From positions 1 through 53,590 of the forward strand of contig JARGFV010000002.1 in the NCBI GenBank assembly GCA_029210545.1: a stretch of 53,590 nucleotides of DNA. Reading direction: 5' to 3'. The translations under genes were made by a program, and so were the position numbers. Source of the stretch: a bacterium (GTDB lineage: Bacteria; BMS3Abin14). Below, in pieces: positions 30,145 through 39,548 of this stretch. Below the pieces are notes generated by a model. That model worked only from the letters and a program-made list of their open reading frames with translations, ran no database searches and was not told where the DNA came from. How positions within the stretch are numbered: the stretch's first letter is position 1; the number at the start of each line of letters is the position of its first letter.

Positions 30145-32595
30145 ATGAACTCAAGAATCCATAAAAGTCTCAAGATCCCCCTTCTCCCTCCTGCCTGTAT
30201 TCCTGCCCTGATCCTTGCCGTCAGCCTTGCCGTGGGCTGCCTGGCGGGGCGTCCGGATACCGGACTACCTTTTCACGTCGCCCTGCCTGCCGGTTCCGGA
30301 GCGGTGCTCGCGGCACTGCTGTGTCCCAACCCGATCACTGTGGCGGCGGCAGGCCTACTTGCCGGCAGCATTGTGGAAGGTGCCAGGCACTCCAGGGAGG
30401 AGACGTGCATGGGCCTGTTTATCCCGGAGACGACTCTCCGGGGTGTGGTCACCAGAACCAGGCCCGGGACCCACGGGTCGGTGCAGGTCACTCTCGATGT
30501 GAGCGAACTCCTTACCACGGAAAAGATCCCGGTGTGCTTCCCGGCGACCTTTTCCATGCCTGCATCAATGGCTGCCGGCAGCGTTACCGACGGATTACCG
30601 GAGTCGGGGAACACTGTGACCGTTCGTTCCGCTCTGGGGATGGGTGTTAACTCCCTTATGAGTGGACAGGGAGGCGCTGCGCACTGGAAGGGGGAAAGTG
30701 ATCAAGGGGGGGTCGTCGCCGCCGCAAGAAGGCGTCTCGCAGGGGCGATAGACCAGAGCGAAAGCCCTATGGCCGGCCTTCTCGCCTCCATGGCCCTGGG
30801 TGAGCGCTGGCGGGTTCACAGCCAGGTCCGGGATCTTCTCAGGCGCAGCGGAACGTACCACCTCCTGGCGGTCTCCGGGGTGCACATCGCCGCGGCCATC
30901 CTGTTCCCCTCCCTTGTTCTTCGTATGTGCTGCGCCATGTTCGGAGTATCGATGGTTGGCTGGAGCAGGATGGCACTGCTTGTCGTGTCGGCGGGCGCAG
31001 CCCTTTTCTACCTGTCCTTTACCGGTTCGAGCCCCTCGGCCATCCGTGCCTTTCTTTTTCTCCTCCTGTTTCATCTGGCAGCCGCGTCCGGCCGCCAAAG
31101 GCTCCCATTAGCTCTCCTGGCCTGGTGCGCTGTTCTCATCATCGCTTTTTCCCCGGCCAGTCAGCCCGACCTGGCCCTCGTCATGTCGGTGCTGGCCGTG
31201 ACCGGAATCCTGGCGGCATCACAGGCAAAAGGCGGACGTTGTGAAAAAGGGCATTGGCGCGCTGGGGCGGGTGAGCATGGACGTGGAGCAGGCCCGGGAC
31301 CATGGGCAGGAAAAGCGTGGCGTCAGGCATGGGGTGTTGTACTGGGTGCTGCCATATTCACCATGCCCGTGGTGGCCTGGTGCGCCTCCGGGATCTCCCT
31401 GGTGGGTCCGGTCGCCAACTTCCTCCTGTCGATCCCCTTCGGTCTCATCCTGATCCCATGGGCTGTCATGCTTGATATCCTCGCCCTCTGCCCGTGGGTG
31501 GATCTGGAGAGGATGGTCCGTTCCTGGGAGACCGCGGCCGGGTTTGTCATGGCCGCTGCGGATCTCATCACGAGTTTCCCACTTTCCTTCATACCCCTGT
31601 CGTGGACAGGCCGGGCAGCGGCGACCTTGTCGGCAGTCGGTGCGGCGTGGATCTGGGGACGGGCAGGATGGGGAATCCGCCGGGGGGCGCTCCTCTTCCT
31701 CACAATTGGGTGTATTTCAGGAACGATACATTACGTGGACGAGATGGTGAGAGGGCGTGACCTGACCGTCTTCTTCCCTTCCCTCGGCCAGGCGGACGGG
31801 TCTGTCCTCCGGGTAAAAGGGCAGACCGTCCTCATCGACTGCGGGCCGCCGGGTTCGCCGGGCCGGCCGGCACCCATGGCAGGAGCGCTGGAAAAGCTGG
31901 GCATCAGGCGCGTGGATGCTCTTTTCATCTCGCACCCCCATCCCGACCATGGGGGAGGCCTGGGGGAGATCGCGGCCCGGTGGCCCATAGACCGTGTATT
32001 CCTGGCGGGCGACCACCGAAACCTGGGGGACTGGGAAACGGTGCTGGAAGCGGTTCCGGTAAACACCCCTGTCCGCCTTCTCCTGGCCGGGGACAAGGTC
32101 TGCCTGGGCGAGCTTGAGTTCAGAACACTGGGCCCGAGGGATGGGGCCGCCCTTTCGGCCGATCCCAACGGCGGGTCCATGATCCTGCTGGTCACCGGCG
32201 ACCGATTCAGGGGGCTGTTCACCGGGGATGCTCCGTGGAGCCTGGTAGCTGGAGCTTTACCGGGGGTAGGGGAGCTTGACCTTTTCAAGGTGCCTCATCA
32301 CGGGAGCGCCACCGGGTTTGCCGGGTCCGGGATGGAGGAGGTCATCGAATCGATGAGAGTCTCCGGGAACACAACGGATAGCACATGGGGCGGCCGCACA
32401 CGGTTCCTTTGCCCCTCACGAACTCCGGGACAGGGGACACTGCCCTCCAGGAAAGTGGTCAAATGGTTCGCCTCCCGGGGCATCCAGTTCATTTATCCGG
32501 AATATCCTGGAATTACCCTGCGGTATCTCAAGGATCGCCCAACGAAGTTCTCACGGCCGCACTTTGGCTGCCGCCTTCCCCTTATGACTCCGTAA
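30145..32595 (+). CDS. comEC: ComEC/Rec2 DNA uptake channel with metallo-beta-lactamase domain
   Basis: HLLAVSGVHI, PSAIRA, multiple TMs, GQADG, IDCG, SHPHPDHGGG, LFTGD, KVPHHGS. Start uncertain. Confidence 0.85.
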   Translation: MNSRIHKSLKIPLLPPACIPALILAVSLAVGCLAGRPDTGLPFHVALPAGSGAVLAALLCPNPITVAAAGLLAGSIVEGARHSREETCMGLFIPETTLRGVVTRTRPGTHGSVQVTLDVSELLTTEKIPVCFPATFSMPASMAAGSVTDGLPESGNTVTVRSALGMGVNSLMSGQGGAAHWKGESDQGGVVAAARRRLAGAIDQSESPMAGLLASMALGERWRVHSQVRDLLRRSGTYHLLAVSGVHIAAAILFPSLVLRMCCAMFGVSMVGWSRMALLVVSAGAALFYLSFTGSSPSAIRAFLFLLLFHLAAASGRQRLPLALLAWCAVLIIAFSPASQPDLALVMSVLAVTGILAASQAKGGRCEKGHWRAGAGEHGRGAGPGPWAGKAWRQAWGVVLGAAIFTMPVVAWCASGISLVGPVANFLLSIPFGLILIPWAVMLDILALCPWVDLERMVRSWETAAGFVMAAADLITSFPLSFIPLSWTGRAAATLSAVGAAWIWGRAGWGIRRGALLFLTIGCISGTIHYVDEMVRGRDLTVFFPSLGQADGSVLRVKGQTVLIDCGPPGSPGRPAPMAGALEKLGIRRVDALFISHPHPDHGGGLGEIAARWPIDRVFLAGDHRNLGDWETVLEAVPVNTPVRLLLAGDKVCLGELEFRTLGPRDGAALSADPNGGSMILLVTGDRFRGLFTGDAPWSLVAGALPGVGELDLFKVPHHGSATGFAGSGMEEVIESMRVSGNTTDSTWGGRTRFLCPSRTPGQGTLPSRKVVKWFASRGIQFIYPEYPGITLRYLKDRPTKFSRPHFGCRLPLMTP

Positions 32596-32604
32596 TATGT
32601 TCTC

Positions 32605-33018
32605 GGGCGGCGCGCCCAAATCAATGAATAGCCGCGCCTGGGAATGGCGCCCGGATCGATGATCGACCATCTACCGCGCCTGGGAATGGCGCCCGGATCG
32701 ATGATCGACCATCTACCGCGCCTGGGAATGGCGCCCGGATCAGTGACTGAAATACAGGTCACTGATCCGTGAGGGAACCGAAAACCACGCTTTTCGGTTT
32801 CCGTTGAGCCAAAGTCCTACTCGGACTTTGGCGATTTACAGTAGTCACCGTGAGGGAACCGAAAACCACGCTTTTCGGTTTCCGTTGAGCCAAAGTCCTA
32901 CCCGGACTTTGGCGATTTACAGTAGTCACCGTGAGGAAAGGGAAAACGACGCTTTTCCCTTCCCCCAGGACATTAATGAGCCAGGAAAAGTTCCGCCTGG
33001 ACTTTTTGCGACTCTATC
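32605..33018 (+). repeat. Family A copy A3, expanded by internal tandem duplications (42 bp x2.6; 81 bp x2)
   Basis: 42-bp unit starts at 32632, 32674 and 32716; 81-bp unit starts at 32767 and 32848; canonical A right end at 32929-33018; left TIR absent. Confidence 0.85.
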
Positions 33019-33090: not shown

Positions 33091-33119
33091 TTGACAAGGG
33101 TCACTTGTTCTGATACTAA
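33091..33119 (+). promoter_or_regulatory. Possible sigma-70 promoter for the GGDEF gene
   Basis: TTGACA at 33091-33096 with TG-A-TACTAA at 17-nt spacing; weak -10 match. Confidence 0.35.
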
Positions 33120-33168: not shown

Positions 33169-34614
33169 ATGGCCAGATACAAGATTCTGGTCGTCGACGA
33201 CGACCAGTTTTCCCGCACATTCTGCCGACAGATCCTGGAAGAGGGCGATGACCTTTCTGTGGTCGAGGCTAACCAGGTCGATGAGGCGCTTCGGATCATT
33301 GCCGAAGGCGGCATCGATCTCGTCATTTCCGACCTCGTCATGCCTGAAAAGACCGGGCTCGACCTGGTTGAGATACTCCGTCTCGAGGCGCCCAGCCTCA
33401 AGGTGATCCTGATCACAGGGCACGGTACGGTTGAAAGCGCCGTCAAGGCCATGAAGCTGGGTGCCATTGATTATATCCGGAAGCCTCTTAACCCGGCGGA
33501 ATTCATGATCGTTGTCCGCAGGGCCCTTGAGCAGATCCGTCTTTCCGAAGAGAACCAGGCGCTCAAGAGCAGCCTCAAGCTTTACGATGTGAGCAGCCGG
33601 ATATCACGGACCATCGAGATCGAGGAACTCTACCAGACGATCTTCGATCTCATGATCCAGGAAACGGGAGCGACCAGAGGTTTCCTTTACGTGGTGGACC
33701 AGGAGCAGGGCGATTCCAACATCATCCTGTCCGAGGGGTTCGATGCTGACGACAACGAGGACCTTGACCGGAAGCTGTTCGAAGAGTACCAGATGGAACT
33801 CACCGATATCACGACCCCGTTTGTCCCCGGCAGCCCTCCGCTGGTCAAGATAAATTGCCGTTCCGTCTCGGATAGCATCCAGTCGGTCATGTTCGTTCCC
33901 CTCAGGAACAAGTCCGACATGGTAGGGATGGTGGTATTTTTTGACACCGAGCGGCTGGCGGTTTTCGGTGATGAGGAGATGAGGGTAGCGACTTTTCTCT
34001 GTGAACAGGCTAACGCCGCCCTGGAAAATGCCCTGCTTTACTCCCAGGCCAAGATCCTCACCATCACCGACGACCTCACCAACGTCTACAACTACCGTTA
34101 CCTCAACAATATCCTTGACCGGGAACTGGTGCGGGCTCAGCGGCTGAACTCATCCATGTCCGTCCTGTTCCTGGATCTCGATTCGTTCAAAAAGGTCAAC
34201 GATCACCACGGGCACCTTCTGGGCAGCAAGATCCTCATCGAGCTGGCCGGCCTGCTCAAGGGAGCCGTCCGAAAGGTGGACGCCGTGGCCCGGTATGGTG
34301 GCGACGAATACATTGTCGTCCTTACTGATACCAACTCCAAAGGCGCCATGATCGTGGCCGAGAGGATCCGGCAGATGGTGGAGGAGCACACCTTCACCGT
34401 GAGCGAGGGGTATCCCGTGAAGCTCACAATTTCCATCGGTGTAGCCTCCTATCCCGAACACGGGGTCAGCAAGGTGGAGCTGCTGCACCTTGCCGATGAA
34501 GCCATGTACCGCGGCAAGTACGGAAGGAAGAACATCGTTTACGTGGCGACGCCGGACGAAAAGACCCTGACTGGTCCGATCAGCCCGCCCGAGTCCATCC
34601 CAGATAGTCAATAA
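33169..34614 (+). CDS. REC-GAF-GGDEF dinucleotide cyclase with Hypr signature (GacA-like, putative 3',3'-cGAMP synthase)
   Basis: REC (VVDDD, ISDLVMP, RKP), GAF-like middle, DLDSFKKVNDHHGHLLGS (Ser353 where diguanylate cyclases have Asp), I-site RKVD, RYGGDEY; between comEC and hisS. Confidence 0.85.
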   Translation: MARYKILVVDDDQFSRTFCRQILEEGDDLSVVEANQVDEALRIIAEGGIDLVISDLVMPEKTGLDLVEILRLEAPSLKVILITGHGTVESAVKAMKLGAIDYIRKPLNPAEFMIVVRRALEQIRLSEENQALKSSLKLYDVSSRISRTIEIEELYQTIFDLMIQETGATRGFLYVVDQEQGDSNIILSEGFDADDNEDLDRKLFEEYQMELTDITTPFVPGSPPLVKINCRSVSDSIQSVMFVPLRNKSDMVGMVVFFDTERLAVFGDEEMRVATFLCEQANAALENALLYSQAKILTITDDLTNVYNYRYLNNILDRELVRAQRLNSSMSVLFLDLDSFKKVNDHHGHLLGSKILIELAGLLKGAVRKVDAVARYGGDEYIVVLTDTNSKGAMIVAERIRQMVEEHTFTVSEGYPVKLTISIGVASYPEHGVSKVELLHLADEAMYRGKYGRKNIVYVATPDEKTLTGPISPPESIPDSQ

Positions 34615-34626
34615 AGGATCACCACC

Positions 34627-35901
34627 ATGAGCTTGCTGATAAGGGGTATCCGGGGGTTCAGGGATATCCCCGCTGAGGAAGCTTTTCGGCATCGCTACGC
34701 AGAGGACCGGACCAGGGAGCATTTCGCCCTTTACGGTTACAGGGAGGTCCGCCTCCCCCTGGTAGAATCCACCGAACTGTTCGCCAGAGGTATCGGTGAG
34801 GCCACCGATATCGTCGAAAAGGAGATGTACACCTTCGAGGATCGGAACGGAGCCAGCCTGACCCTCCGCCCCGAGGGGACCGCTTCGGCCGTGCGAGCCT
34901 ATCTCGAGGGTGGGTGGAAGTCCCAGGGCAGAATCGCCAAGATCTTTTACACAGGGCCCATGTTCCGTTACGAACGTCCCCAGAAGGGCCGGTACAGGCA
35001 GTTCTACCAGGTCGGCCTCGAAGCTGTCGGGGGGGCCGGTCCCATGGTGGACGCCGAGGTCATCGACCTCCTTCACCGGCTTTTCGTGCGGCTCAAAGTG
35101 GACAATGTCAAGATCCTGGTCAACTCCCTTGGCTGTTCCGAATGCCGTCCGGCGTTCAGGGAAAAACTGCTCGCCTTCATCCAGGGAAAGACGGAAGAGC
35201 TTTGCGCCAACTGTGTCCGAAGGACGGGTTCCAACCCTCTCAGGGTGCTGGACTGCAAGGTCCCGTCGTGTCGTGAGGCCCTGACGGGGGCACCGGTGAT
35301 CCTCGACGACCTGTGCGCTGAGTGCGACGATCATTTCAAACGCGTACTCGAGGCGCTGACCGGCCTGGACGTGCCCCACGAGGTGGACCCGGGGATCGTC
35401 AGGGGCCTCGATTACTACAACCGGACAGCTTTCGAGGCCGTGTGTACAGGCCTCGGGGCCCAGAACGCCGTGGCTGCAGGCGGTCGTTACGACGGGCTGG
35501 CCCGGGAGATCGGCGGAGACGTGCCGGGCATCGGTTTTGCCATCGGTCTGGAGAGGCTGACCCTGGTCATGGACTGGGAGGGCCTGGAAGAGGCCGGTCC
35601 CGATTTTTTCGTCGCCTCGGCCACGACAGCCGCAAGGGTCCCGGCCATGGCCCTGGCCGACACTTTGCGAGAGCAGGGGTTCGCGGTCCAGACTGACCTG
35701 GAGGACCGAAGCCTGAAGGCCCAGTTCAGAAGTGCCCACCGCATGGGCGCGGCCCGGGTCCTCATCCTCGGTGACGACGAGTTGGCTGAGGGGTCCGTGC
35801 AGGTCAAGGATTTTGCCACAGGTGAACAGGTAAAGGTGGTACAAGAAAAGTTCGTTGAAGGTCTAAAGGGGCCGCCGCGCCTCTCCGGCAGCATAAAGTA
35901 G
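34627..35901 (+). CDS. hisS: Histidine--tRNA ligase
   Basis: RGFRD, LRPEGTA, FRYERPQKGRYRQFYQ, RGLDYY, AGGRYDGL, GFAIGLERL. Confidence 0.97.
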   Translation: MSLLIRGIRGFRDIPAEEAFRHRYAEDRTREHFALYGYREVRLPLVESTELFARGIGEATDIVEKEMYTFEDRNGASLTLRPEGTASAVRAYLEGGWKSQGRIAKIFYTGPMFRYERPQKGRYRQFYQVGLEAVGGAGPMVDAEVIDLLHRLFVRLKVDNVKILVNSLGCSECRPAFREKLLAFIQGKTEELCANCVRRTGSNPLRVLDCKVPSCREALTGAPVILDDLCAECDDHFKRVLEALTGLDVPHEVDPGIVRGLDYYNRTAFEAVCTGLGAQNAVAAGGRYDGLAREIGGDVPGIGFAIGLERLTLVMDWEGLEEAGPDFFVASATTAARVPAMALADTLREQGFAVQTDLEDRSLKAQFRSAHRMGAARVLILGDDELAEGSVQVKDFATGEQVKVVQEKFVEGLKGPPRLSGSIK

Positions 35902-36015: not shown

Positions 36016-37674
36016 ATGATCACATCGGGAAGTCTGAAGAGCATGGATCTGCTCAAGATCCTGAAGAATGCCGTAGCCAAGTCCTTTACCGGGACCATCA
36101 CCCTCAAGGGCAAGACCGGGCTGGCCTCCATCACCCTCAAGGGAGGCGAGGTCGTCTTTATCAGGGAACCGCGGATCAGGAGCAGGCTGGGGCGGTACCT
36201 TGTCAGCCGGAACATCATCACTGAAAAGGAGCTCCAAGGCGCCTTGAACGCGCAGAAAAAGAAAGGGGGCACTTTCCTCGGGGAAGTCCTCATCGAGCAG
36301 GGCGTTATCGACAAGGAGTCGCTGGACCAGGCTATGAAAAACGTGGCCGAAGAGTCTCTGGTGCACCTTTTCACCTGGGAGGAGGGCCTGTTCCGGGTGG
36401 AGGAGGAGGATGTCCCGGGCGACTCCATAGGGGACATCGATTACGAGGCCCTTGCCGGATCGGCCAGGCAGCTGGCTTCCGCCGTGGTGGACGACTGGGC
36501 CATCGACGAGATGATGCCCAAGGAAACCCGGATAAAGGATGACATCCGGGAGGAGATCTTCACGGCCGTCCGCCGCGTCAGCCAGAAACTCCGGGAGCTC
36601 AAGCCCGACGAGGTTGTTCTTCTCGTCGAGGACGAGATGCTCATGCGCGAGATGTTCCGGGACAAGCTCACTACCTTCGGGTTCGAGGTGGACGCGGTGG
36701 AATCTCCCCACAAGGCTCTCGAATTGCTGTCACAGTACGAGGAGGACGGCAAGATACCCATCGTCATCACCGATCTCATTATGCCCACCTTGAGCGGGAA
36801 GGGGATCTTCGGGGGACTCGAGCTTCTCGAGGAGATCCAGAAGACACACGGGCACATCCCGGTCATCGTCAACACGGCCTACCCGGACCCCTCGATCCGC
36901 AGACGGGCCCTCTTTCTGGGAGCCACCTACTATATCAACAAGCCGGAACGCAAGGATATCGCCCCTGACCAGCTGGAAAACCAGCTCAACCTTTTCATCG
37001 AGGAGGTCGCCCTCTGTATCCAGAACGTGATCCAGCGCCACGAGGTCTACTTCGAACGCGATCATCAGAACATCCTGAGAGAGGAACTCCTTTCCCAGCT
37101 CATCCAGTCCCGTGAGGAGCTGCAGAAGGTGGGAGAGGTCGTCCAGAGGGACTCGGGGGACATCAAGTTCCTGTCGGAGACGAGCGCAAAGATGGTGCGG
37201 GACAAGAGCCTGGGTAAAATGGCGGAGGTCATTGTGAACTTCGCTGCTGCCGAGATGGACCGTTGCGCGATCCTGCTCGTCCGCAAGGACGACGTCACAG
37301 GGTTCTACGGCTCAGACCGGCGCCCGAGGGGGGAGGGGTTCGGCGGGGCGATCAAGGGGCTGGCCATGAGCGTGTCCGATTCCCCCCTGCTCAGGCAGGC
37401 CGTGGAAGGGAAGAAGGTTGTCACCATGGAAAACCCCGGCGATCAGCTGGGAGCTGTCCTGAAGGGTGTCCTGGGTGACCCGCCCCCCCATCACACGGTG
37501 GTTCTTCCCATCATGGTGCAGAACATGGCCGTTGCCCTGCTCTATGGTGACGTGGTCCCCGGCGGGCCGCCGCCCAGGGAGATCGAGTCCCTCGAGATCC
37601 TGATGAACCTGGCCTCCCTTTCCCTCGAGATCCAGCAGCAGCAGGTCATGATCAAGAGGTTGAAAGGGAGTTAG
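36016..37674 (+). CDS. DUF4388 / MshEN-like / REC / GAF-like signalling protein
   Basis: DUF4388-type ITSGSLKSMDLLKIL...FTGTITL; RLGRYLVSRNIITEKELQGALNAQ and FLGEVLIEQGVI; REC (LVEDE, TDLIMP, NKP); GAF-like VLPIMVQNMAVALLYGD. ATG 36016 with AAGGAG. Confidence 0.72.
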   Translation: MITSGSLKSMDLLKILKNAVAKSFTGTITLKGKTGLASITLKGGEVVFIREPRIRSRLGRYLVSRNIITEKELQGALNAQKKKGGTFLGEVLIEQGVIDKESLDQAMKNVAEESLVHLFTWEEGLFRVEEEDVPGDSIGDIDYEALAGSARQLASAVVDDWAIDEMMPKETRIKDDIREEIFTAVRRVSQKLRELKPDEVVLLVEDEMLMREMFRDKLTTFGFEVDAVESPHKALELLSQYEEDGKIPIVITDLIMPTLSGKGIFGGLELLEEIQKTHGHIPVIVNTAYPDPSIRRRALFLGATYYINKPERKDIAPDQLENQLNLFIEEVALCIQNVIQRHEVYFERDHQNILREELLSQLIQSREELQKVGEVVQRDSGDIKFLSETSAKMVRDKSLGKMAEVIVNFAAAEMDRCAILLVRKDDVTGFYGSDRRPRGEGFGGAIKGLAMSVSDSPLLRQAVEGKKVVTMENPGDQLGAVLKGVLGDPPPHHTVVLPIMVQNMAVALLYGDVVPGGPPPREIESLEILMNLASLSLEIQQQQVMIKRLKGS

Positions 37675-37745: not shown

Positions 37746-39548
37746 TTGGAAAAGAGATCAAGCAAACTGGACCTGCTCGGAGACTGGCAACGCACTCATC
37801 ACTGCAGTCAACTCACCGAGGCAGACGTCGGTGAGAAGGTTCTCCTCATGGGCTGGATCCTGAGGCGCCGTGACCATGGAGGTCTCATCTTCGTCGATCT
37901 CAGGGACAGGTGGGGGATCACCCAGGTCGTGTTCAACCCGGAGAACGAACCGGTTTCCCACAAAAAGGCCGAGGCCCTCCGGTCCGAATGGGTCATCGCT
38001 GTCAGGGGAAAGGTGATCGCGCGTCCCGAAGGGATGCAGAACCCGGATCTCACCACGGGCGCAATCGAAGTCATGGCCAGTGAACTGAGGATCCTCAACA
38101 CCAGCGCGACCCCTCCTTTTGCCATTGATGAACGGGAAGGTACCGATATCGCCGAAAACCTCCGGCTCACGTACCGCTACCTGGACCTCCGGAGGGAGAG
38201 CCTGAAGAAGAACATGGTCTTAAGGTCCCTGGTGAGCAAGCGGGTCCGGGATTTCTTCTACAACGAAGAGTTCCTGGAGATCGAAACGCCGTTTCTGACC
38301 AAAAGCACCCCGGAGGGGGCCCGTGACTACCTTGTTCCCAGCCGCATCCAGCACGGGCACATGTATGCCCTTCCCCAGTCCCCCCAACTGTTCAAGCAGC
38401 TGCTCATGGTGTCCGGCTATGACCGCTACTTCCAGATCGTCCACTGTTTCAGGGACGAGGACCTCAGGGCAGACCGCCAGCCGGAGTTCACCCAGATAGA
38501 CGTGGAGATGTCGTTTATCACCGAAGACGTCCTGTTCGACGTTATGGAACGAATGATCACCGACCTGTTCAGCTTTGCCCTGGACACCCGGATCCAGTCG
38601 TCTTTCCCAAGGTTGTCCTATTCGGAGGCCCTGGACCGGTTCGGTCTGGACCGGCCCGACACCCGGTTCGCCATGGAACTCGTTGACCTGAGCGGACCGC
38701 TGAGCCGGACAGAGGCCAGACTTTTTTCAGAGACGGTGGCCGGCGGCGGGATCGTCAAGGCCATCAACGTTAAAGAAGGTGCGCGGCTGTCACGGAAAGA
38801 GCTGGACGAACTTGCCGATCACGTTGCCATTTACGGCGCAAAGGGTCTTGCGTGGTTCAAGAACAACCCCGACGGCTGGCAGTCGCCCCTGGCCAAGTTC
38901 ATCGGTGAGGATGTCCGCGGCCAGATCGCGCAGGCCGCCGGGTTTGAAACCGGCGATCTGCTCCTGGTCGTTGCCGGTGACTCCGCCATGGTCAACGAGT
39001 CCCTCGGACAGCTCAGGCTCCATGTTGCCCAGAAACTGGACCTCATCCCCGCGGGGCGGTTCGACTTCCTCTGGGTGGTTGATTTCCCCCTTTTCGAATA
39101 CGATGCCAGGGACGGACGCTACTATTCCATGCACCACCCCTTCACCTCCCCGGTGGAGGACGATATCCCCCTGCTTGGGACCGATCCCGGGAAGGTGAGG
39201 GCACGGGCCTACGACATGGTCCTCAACGGTTCGGAGATCGGCGGCGGAAGCATCAGGATCCACCGTCAGGATATCCAGAGCGCCGTCTTCCAGCTTCTCA
39301 ACATCGGTCCCGAGGAGGCAAGGGAGAAGTTCGGATTTCTCCTCGACGCCCTCCAGTATGGCGCCCCGCCCCACGGCGGCATCGCCTTCGGACTGGACAG
39401 GATCATGATGCTCCTTACTGGCGCAACCTCCATCAGGGACGTGATCCCCTTCCCCAAAACCCAGAAGGCAACCTGCCTGCTCACCGGCGCGCCGAGCGCG
39501 GTGGACCCCGCACAGCTGGCGGAGCTGGGGTTGCGGCTGAAGAAATAG
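37746..39548 (+). CDS. aspS: Aspartate--tRNA ligase, probably non-discriminating (Asp/Asn)
   Basis: [15 protein letters not shown] (His) and RPEG (Gly) are typical of non-discriminating AspRS; [44 protein letters not shown] start after AAGGAG. Confidence 0.95.

Follow-up and report, generated by a model that had tools for sequence, protein, structure and literature searches.

GacA of Geobacter (GSU1658 in G. sulfurreducens; Gmet_1914 in G. metallireducens, PDB 5VS9/6D9M) is the founding member of the Hypr GGDEF enzymes and a source of cGAMP, the 3',3'-cyclic GMP-AMP dinucleotide. Its orthologs beyond Geobacter, Hypr systems that lack riboswitches (Myxococcus, Bdellovibrio) and RxxQ phosphodiesterases have also been described. 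Here we analyze a stretch of 53,590 nucleotides (nt) from an uncultured bacterium of the BMS3Abin14 lineage (assembly GCA_029210545.1, contig JARGFV010000002.1, positions 1 to 53,590; hereafter “the window”), and in it one gene that we call gacA-like, or simply gacA. Judging from its sequence, this gene is probably an ortholog or a very close homolog of Geobacter gacA, and cGAMP is likely to be a major product of the enzyme. The databases label the protein and all of its relatives “diguanylate cyclase”, which probably names the wrong product for them.

What sets Hypr enzymes apart is known from the structure of G. metallireducens GacA (GmGacA). Its Ser348 touches the base at the Watson-Crick face and its Asn339 does so at the sugar face, while Asp374 of the GGDEF motif holds Mg2+ and Glu375 serves as the cross-dimer general base (PMC6456294). 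Natural Ser/Thr-type GGDEFs bear GGDE[F/Y] exclusively, and a Ser combined with GGEEF is inactive, a “Goldilocks” requirement (PMC6456294). A further position, which crosses the dimer, is Arg in 94% of diguanylate cyclases and Tyr304 in GmGacA; Hypr enzymes with Arg at this position make more cyclic di-GMP (c-di-GMP), whereas the output is mostly cGAMP where the residue is Tyr, Ser, Ala or Gln (PMC6456294). The diguanylate cyclases PleD, WspR and DgcR share the fold, the phosphorylation-driven dimerization, the I-site and the GGDEF chemistry with the protein studied here, but they differ in having the selectivity Asp, the cross-dimer Arg, often GGEEF, and c-di-GMP as their only product.

Two other Hypr systems are relevant for comparison. 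Bd0367 of Bdellovibrio bacteriovorus is, like our protein, a Hypr enzyme with a REC and a GGDEF domain; it is an in vivo source of cGAMP, and cGAMP synthesis is lost in vivo in its S214D mutant (PMC9140294). It has been tied to surface motility, with no effector or receptor named in the parts of PMC9140294 that were searched, and it differs from our protein in having no GAF domain and in belonging to another clade. Myxococcus xanthus, which we liken to our system by description, possesses MxGacA (MXAN_4463), MxGacB (MXAN_2643) and PmxA (MXAN_2061), and is likewise a Hypr cGAMP system without known cGAMP riboswitches.

Selectivity site and other Hypr determinants

An earlier note on this DNA had called the gene a Hypr-type GGDEF and a probable cGAMP synthase rather than a diguanylate cyclase. 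It pointed to Ser353 in the open reading frame (ORF), the NDHHGHLLGS and GGDEY motifs, the RxxD I-site, and a REC and a GAF-like domain. All of these features proved right to the base (Table 1), and the proposed activity is supported by the further determinants of PMC6456294, which were also found, and by a tree in which the protein stands beside the GacA clade.

The best match among solved structures was 6D9M, the Hypr GGDEF domain of GmGacA in a T4-lysozyme fusion (E = 6.7e-53), and the two GGDEF domains are 56.5% identical over 161 columns. HMMER aligned Ser353 with the Ser of 6D9M (“vndhhghllgskil” versus “vndthghlvgsqvl”) and with Asp344 of PleD (in “indtfghdigdevl”). The GacA residue is Ser348 in G. 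metallireducens numbering and Ser347 in G. sulfurreducens numbering; the latter is the residue with which the earlier note had equated Ser353. A constant offset of five residues leads from GmGacA to Asn344, Ser353, Asp379, Glu380 and Tyr309 of our protein, and the segment “NYRYL” around Tyr309 aligns with “NYRYL” of GacA and “NRRYM” of PleD.

These residues are strongly conserved. The Ser at the selectivity site was kept in 114 of the 115 closest cluster representatives, always alongside GGDE[Y/F], while GGDE[Y/F] itself and the Arg and Asp of the I-site (R368, D371) were present in all 115. Asn344 was invariant in the 115 homologs, and the cross-dimer residue was Tyr in 95 of the representatives and Arg in none. 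GGDEY is also the majority form among Geobacteraceae GacA orthologs. On the other hand, of the eight further catalytically plausible GGDEF domains of the host genome, seven carry the selectivity-site Asp; most of these have GGEEF, and their cross-dimer residue is often Arg. Since Ser and GGDE[Y/F] occur together in nearly all relatives while the paralogs almost all have Asp, Ser353 is not a chance substitution.

In the REC domain the phospho-acceptor Asp55, Thr83 and Lys105 are invariant among the 115 homologs and Asp11/Asp12 nearly so. A full-length AlphaFold2 model, built on an alignment of 115 homologs, has a mean predicted local distance difference test score (pLDDT) of 88.3 and consists of three globular domains linked by two long helices; the GAF domain is modeled as folded (pLDDT about 86-94). 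This middle domain is a clear GAF here, in contrast to most Geobacteraceae orthologs, for which the precomputed Pfam lists give no GAF. A fold search with the full-length model returned REC-GGDEF and REC-GAF proteins only, the top full-length matches being canonical REC-GGDEF cyclases. Against the NCBIfam PleD model the protein scored 198.6 bits, with a cut-off of 474. By sequence reading, a GGGGAGA Shine-Dalgarno sequence lies immediately 5' of the ATG.

Phylogeny and gene neighborhood

The homologs fell into two tiers, one of 54-86% identity from metagenome-assembled genomes of uncultured “bacterium” and one of about 40% identity that includes “GGDEF response regulators” of Geobacter and Geomonas. 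The earlier note had proposed a phylogeny. In a maximum-likelihood tree of the GGDEF domain, the tier of our protein formed one clade (97 in the Shimodaira-Hasegawa-like approximate likelihood ratio test, SH-aLRT), and its sister was the GacA clade of the Geobacteraceae, to which the crystallized GmGacA, 6D9M, belongs (93). The next branch held other Ser-type enzymes of Acidobacteriota and Myxococcota (85). The paralogs of the host genome, PleD and 24 assorted cyclases fell outside these clades; the outgroup cyclases were taken from a generic GGDEF peptide-pattern scan that gave 80 unrelated cyclases.

The host genome (2.72 Mb in 241 contigs, 97.5% complete) belongs to a GTDB phylum whose 16 species make up a single family with nine genera; a gacA ortholog was found in 16 of 16 genomes. 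Identity to 11 sister genomes was 66-81% for gacA, compared to 68-76% for hisS, 72-79% for aspS and 30-39% for comEC. gacA is universal in this phylum and conserved to the level of aminoacyl-tRNA synthetases.

The order comEC-gacA-hisS, which the earlier note had given for Geobacter, was seen in the Geobacteraceae ortholog of Geomonas ferrireducens and also in the complete sister genome. The longer order comEC-gacA-hisS-X-aspS(-mdh) was kept in 11 of the 11 sister genomes examined. The properties of a GacA-type Hypr enzyme were found together in this one protein: the Ser at the selectivity site, GGDE[F/Y], the Glu base, the equivalent of Asn339, a cross-dimer residue other than Arg (Tyr, as in GacA), a REC domain with an RxxD I-site, a clade sister to that of GacA, and a position between comEC and hisS. 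In contrast to GacA, our gene is packed against hisS and then followed by a lineage-specific MshEN-like regulator, and its host belongs to a separate, uncultured, single-family phylum with genomes of 2-3 Mb and no A20 (GEMM-Ib) riboswitches.

No terminator-like site was found by the scan between gacA and hisS on the plus strand, and the two genes are probably co-transcribed. The hairpin array in the spacer behind comEC is not part of the enzyme and lies just upstream of the likely promoter. This possible gacA promoter (Table 1) was read from its sequence; the consensus scan did not list it, owing to the weak -10 element, and the number of hits in the promoter/terminator scan was no higher than in shuffled sequences.

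A second Ser-type GGDEF protein is encoded elsewhere in the genome (Table 1). It has the architecture of Myxococcus GacB and is accessory in the phylum (3 of 16 genomes). Its cross-dimer residue is Ser, the sugar-face Asn is replaced by Val, and RxxD is absent. Its gene sits directly upstream of a 755-aa ORF bearing an HD-GYP domain.

Table 1. Features of the gacA-like locus and of two related genes elsewhere in the host genome (aa, amino acids).
Feature	Position	Strand	Description
comEC	30145..32595	+	816 aa; PF03772 Competence and PF00753 Lactamase_B; upstream neighbor
Hairpin repeat array	32632..32970		Three 42-nt repeats followed by two to three of 81 nt; fills the comEC-gacA spacer
Possible promoter	33091..33119	+	Perfect -35 TTGACA (33091-33096), 17-nt spacer, weak -10 TACTAA; 50 nt 5' of the ATG
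gacA-like gene	33169..34614	+	Open, ATG-started ORF; predicted 481-aa REC-GAF-GGDEF Hypr-type cyclase (P0001)
REC domain	33184..33513	+	Residues 6-115; PF00072, E 4e-27 (Pfam); Asp55 codon 33331-33333
GAF domain	33616..34026	+	Residues 150-286; PF13185 (GAF_2) 1.7e-8, PF13492 2.1e-7, PF01590 2.2e-6
GGDEF catalytic domain	34063..34533	+	Residues 299-455; PF00990, E 6.4e-43
Tyr309 codon (TAC)	34093..34095	+	GmGacA Tyr304, cross-dimer residue
NDHHGHLLGS	34198..34227	+	Residues 344-353; Asn344 = GacA Asn339; Ser353 (AGC, 34225-34227) = GacA Ser348 = PleD Asp344
RKVD (RxxD I-site)	34270..34281	+	Residues 368-371; five residues before GGDEY
GGDEY	34297..34311	+	Residues 377-381; Asp379 = Mg2+ ligand, Glu380 = general base
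hisS	34627..35901	+	PF13393/PF03129; begins 12 nt past the gacA stop
PATAN(DUF4388)-MshEN-like-REC-GAF protein	36016..37674	+	552 aa from Met27 of P0148; Pfam domains; candidate cyclic-dinucleotide receptor
aspS	37746..39548	+	End of the conserved comEC-gacA-hisS-X-aspS block; mdh next
PmxA-like HD-GYP protein	G000:C3:4213-5943	+	Outside the window; dCache_1-HAMP-HD_5, RLYQ motif
Second Ser-type GGDEF protein	C226:9960-10958	-	Outside the window; 333-aa GAF-GGDEF; Ser at selectivity site, GGDEY

Removal and read-out of the signal

In the host genome there are about 12 HD-GYP proteins and a single EAL domain, along with about 14 PilZ domains. HD-GYPs specific for cGAMP, such as PmxA (Cache-transmembrane-HAMP-HD-GYP), are reported to carry Rxx(Q/N) whereas c-di-GMP enzymes carry Rxx(K/R) (bioRxiv 10.1101/600031; Hammond and Nan laboratories). 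Exactly one HD-GYP of the genome has such a motif, RLYQ, while the 10 other readable motifs are all Rxx(K/R). RLYQ aligns with RPYK of PmGH 4MCW (R314/K317), with the Gln falling on Lys317. The same protein was found in 15 of the 16 phylum genomes, with RLYQK invariant, and the genome that lacks it is 71% complete. By its motif and architecture it is a candidate cGAMP-specific phosphodiesterase and would probably remove the signal. As in M. xanthus, again likened by description, the writer co-occurs with a Cache-HAMP-HD-GYP eraser bearing RxxQ. The earlier note had suggested that this lineage uses cGAMP signaling, and this suggestion gains independent support because the RxxQ PmxA-like HD-GYP is kept in nearly all of the genomes.

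The earlier note had also seen no GEMM-I riboswitch in the window and had suggested that the receptor may be a protein. Consistent with this, the window yielded nothing when scanned with Rfam at gathering thresholds, and the genome-wide search that the note had proposed found no GEMM-I in the host genome, whether by the Rfam model, by an nhmmer profile specific to the lineage (best E 1.5) or by motif search. The positive control gave 15 matches in Geomonas. GEMM-I riboswitches did occur in six of the 12 sister genomes searched, in 1-3 copies each. Riboswitches for cGAMP carry A in place of G20, and the affinity of the G20 riboswitch Vc2 is about a million-fold lower for cGAMP than for c-di-GMP (PMC6140456). 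Read in one alignment frame, position 20 was A in 9 of 12 Geomonas riboswitches, whereas it was G in all ten sister-genome riboswitches read. Judging from these sequences, the GEMM-Ib (A20) riboswitch read-out of Geobacter is not used in this phylum, and a protein receptor is therefore reasonable.

One sister locus could be compared directly with the host genome. The solute-binding-protein gene behind riboswitch L021 of sister genome G004 (91% identical) and the end of the gene upstream are syntenic with G000:C184:509-2350 of the host, where the 107-nt GEMM-I is replaced by about 480 nt of unrelated sequence. Homologs of the OmcS-like, FG-GAP and regulator genes controlled by sister riboswitches were not found in the host genome by tblastn; of these riboswitch-controlled genes it has the solute-binding protein only, without a riboswitch.

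Some further observations concern the sister riboswitches themselves. One of them, L013 (G007:C3:12822-12912, minus strand), is a G20 GEMM-I that lies 30 nt 5' of a gene for a 391-aa secreted six-heme cytochrome in a sister genus. This cytochrome may resemble Geobacter OmcS. The omcS gene belongs to the cGAMP riboswitch regulon of Geobacter. OmcST is listed in the Geobacter cGAMP riboswitch context in PMC6456294. In the complete sister genome, L017 and L019 (G001:C1:1316692-1316771 and 1734636-1734715) carry the same GEMM-I sequence, lie 418 kb from each other and point in opposite directions; the sequence downstream of them is partly masked (N). Seven sister riboswitches (within L013-L021) scored just over the gathering threshold of RF03167 (c-di-GMP-I-GGC), an assignment that mirrors overall similarity and not the variant binding site. 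We rejected this variant class, as the diagnostic position 47 is A and not G; these are ordinary GEMM-I riboswitches.

A candidate for a protein receptor lies one gene from gacA, always between hisS and aspS, and its homologs come almost all from this lineage. The start of this gene is most likely 36016, because all homologs are of 552 aa. Residues 79-135 of P0148 match the N-terminal domains of MshE (5HTL, 3.5e-4) and PilF (6f8l, 5.4e-6), which are c-di-GMP-binding domains. Wang and colleagues reportedly defined the MshEN domain in 2016 by a tandem pair of 24-residue motifs, RLGxxLxxxG(h)(h)xxxxLxxxLxxQ, separated by a short spacer. In P0148 the tandem MshEN-like motif spans residues about 81-136. 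The first motif, RLGRYLVSRNIITEKELQGALNAQ, has every defining position invariant in 12 genomes except for a fixed Gly10-to-Asn change, while the second lacks both the Arg and the Gln in each of the 12 genomes read. An asymmetric ligand, with one A and one G, would suit such a domain better than symmetric c-di-GMP, because one motif is canonical and the other lacks both residues. It could be speculated that the Hypr-cGAMP pathway of this phylum is all-protein and that the cGAMP of GacA is read by this candidate receptor; we regard this proposal as tentative, with a small chance of being correct. If true, GGDEF-made cGAMP would have its first protein receptor in this protein, whose PATAN/REC part would plausibly couple it to the pilus or polarity machinery.

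Proposed mechanism and alternative explanations

Characterized relatives suggest how the enzyme may work. Phosphorylation of Asp55 in the REC domain would alter the geometry of the homodimer, and the internal GAF domain may provide a second input. Each GGDEF half-site would take one purine nucleoside triphosphate, with Asn344 reading the sugar face, Asp379 of GGDEY positioning Mg2+ at the distance needed by the short Ser side chain, and Glu380 of the partner subunit deprotonating the 3'-OH. Tyr309 would cross the dimer in place of the guanine-favoring Arg and would bias the pairing to one ATP and one GTP, from which 3',3'-cGAMP is predicted as the main product, alongside some c-di-GMP. Through the RKVD I-site there could be feedback or cross-inhibition by c-di-GMP, which is expected from the seven Asp-type cyclases of the genome. 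The signal would probably be removed by the phylum-conserved PmxA-like RLYQ HD-GYP, and the receptor would most likely be a protein, since GEMM-Ib riboswitches do not appear to be the reader.

Several points weigh against identifying the gene as gacA and its product as cGAMP. We infer the product from the sequence. Hypr enzymes are promiscuous in vitro, and their in vivo product ratio is set by ATP/GTP pools and by the activation state. Over its full length the protein shares only about 40% identity with Geobacteraceae GacA, and the GGDEF-domain tree was built by a quick search, its branches being backed by SH-aLRT values of 85-97 and not by bootstraps. The RxxQ rule for the eraser derives from a few tested enzymes in a preprint (bioRxiv 10.1101/600031). 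Finally, the genome lacks GEMM-I riboswitches and those read in sister genomes are of the G20 type.

One possibility in keeping with some of these points is that the enzyme is in vivo mainly a diguanylate cyclase, the Ser being of little consequence, or that it is Hypr-like but skewed to c-di-GMP as are Cabther_A1065 and Ddes1475. Hypr GGDEFs are able to make all three dinucleotides and two of those tested make mostly c-di-GMP (PMC6456294); moreover, the PilZ domains and many HD-GYPs of the genome amount to a rich c-di-GMP network, and the sister riboswitches are of the c-di-GMP type. However, this is unlikely as Cabther_A1065 and Ddes1475 have the cross-dimer Arg, which neither our protein nor any of its 115 relatives possesses. 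Seven Asp-type cyclases are already present in the genome, Ser and Tyr are fixed throughout the phylum under housekeeping-level conservation, and the predicted cGAMP-specific HD-GYP co-occurs with the gene in all but one of the genomes. It is extremely unlikely that the GGDEF domain is catalytically dead and serves as a cyclic-dinucleotide-binding or scaffolding part of a response regulator, because its catalytic residues (G377, G378, D379, E380, N344, D336/D338 and K450) are all intact and invariant. Many GGDEF proteins are degenerate receptors, and here the I-site is intact and the fifth motif residue is Tyr instead of Phe; yet GGDE[F/Y] is accepted as the active form and is the only one borne by natural Ser/Thr-type enzymes (PMC6456294), the Geobacteraceae GacA orthologs are likewise mostly GGDEY, and the truly degenerate GGDEF paralogs of the same genome look very unlike this protein.

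Another possibility is that riboswitches do read the cGAMP that is made, as they do in Geobacter, and that they were missed either through the fragmented assembly or through a failure of the G20 rule in this lineage. The number of contigs would allow for the former, and GEMM-I riboswitches do exist in half of the sister genomes searched, in one case ahead of the possibly OmcS-like six-heme cytochrome gene. We nevertheless consider this explanation very unlikely. The genome is nearly complete, and still none of the three search methods found a GEMM-I in it; at the sister riboswitch locus both flanking genes are present in the host while the riboswitch sequence is absent; and all ten sister riboswitches have the G20 that, in Vc2, so strongly disfavors cGAMP, as opposed to the A20 of most Geomonas copies. 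The most likely explanation, therefore, is that the gene encodes a GacA-type Hypr enzyme with cGAMP as a major product and that this cGAMP is read by other means than GEMM-Ib riboswitches.

No new chemistry or mechanism comes with the enzyme itself. The modest novelty lies in the pairing, across the phylum, of a GacA-type writer with a PmxA-type eraser where cGAMP riboswitches are lacking, beside a conserved MshEN-like protein. With the annotation corrected, a whole uncultured phylum would join the short list of lineages with GGDEF-made cGAMP. Because it combines this predicted writer and eraser with small genomes, some 14 PilZ domains and no cGAMP riboswitches, the phylum is a compact place to seek protein receptors of Hypr-made cGAMP.

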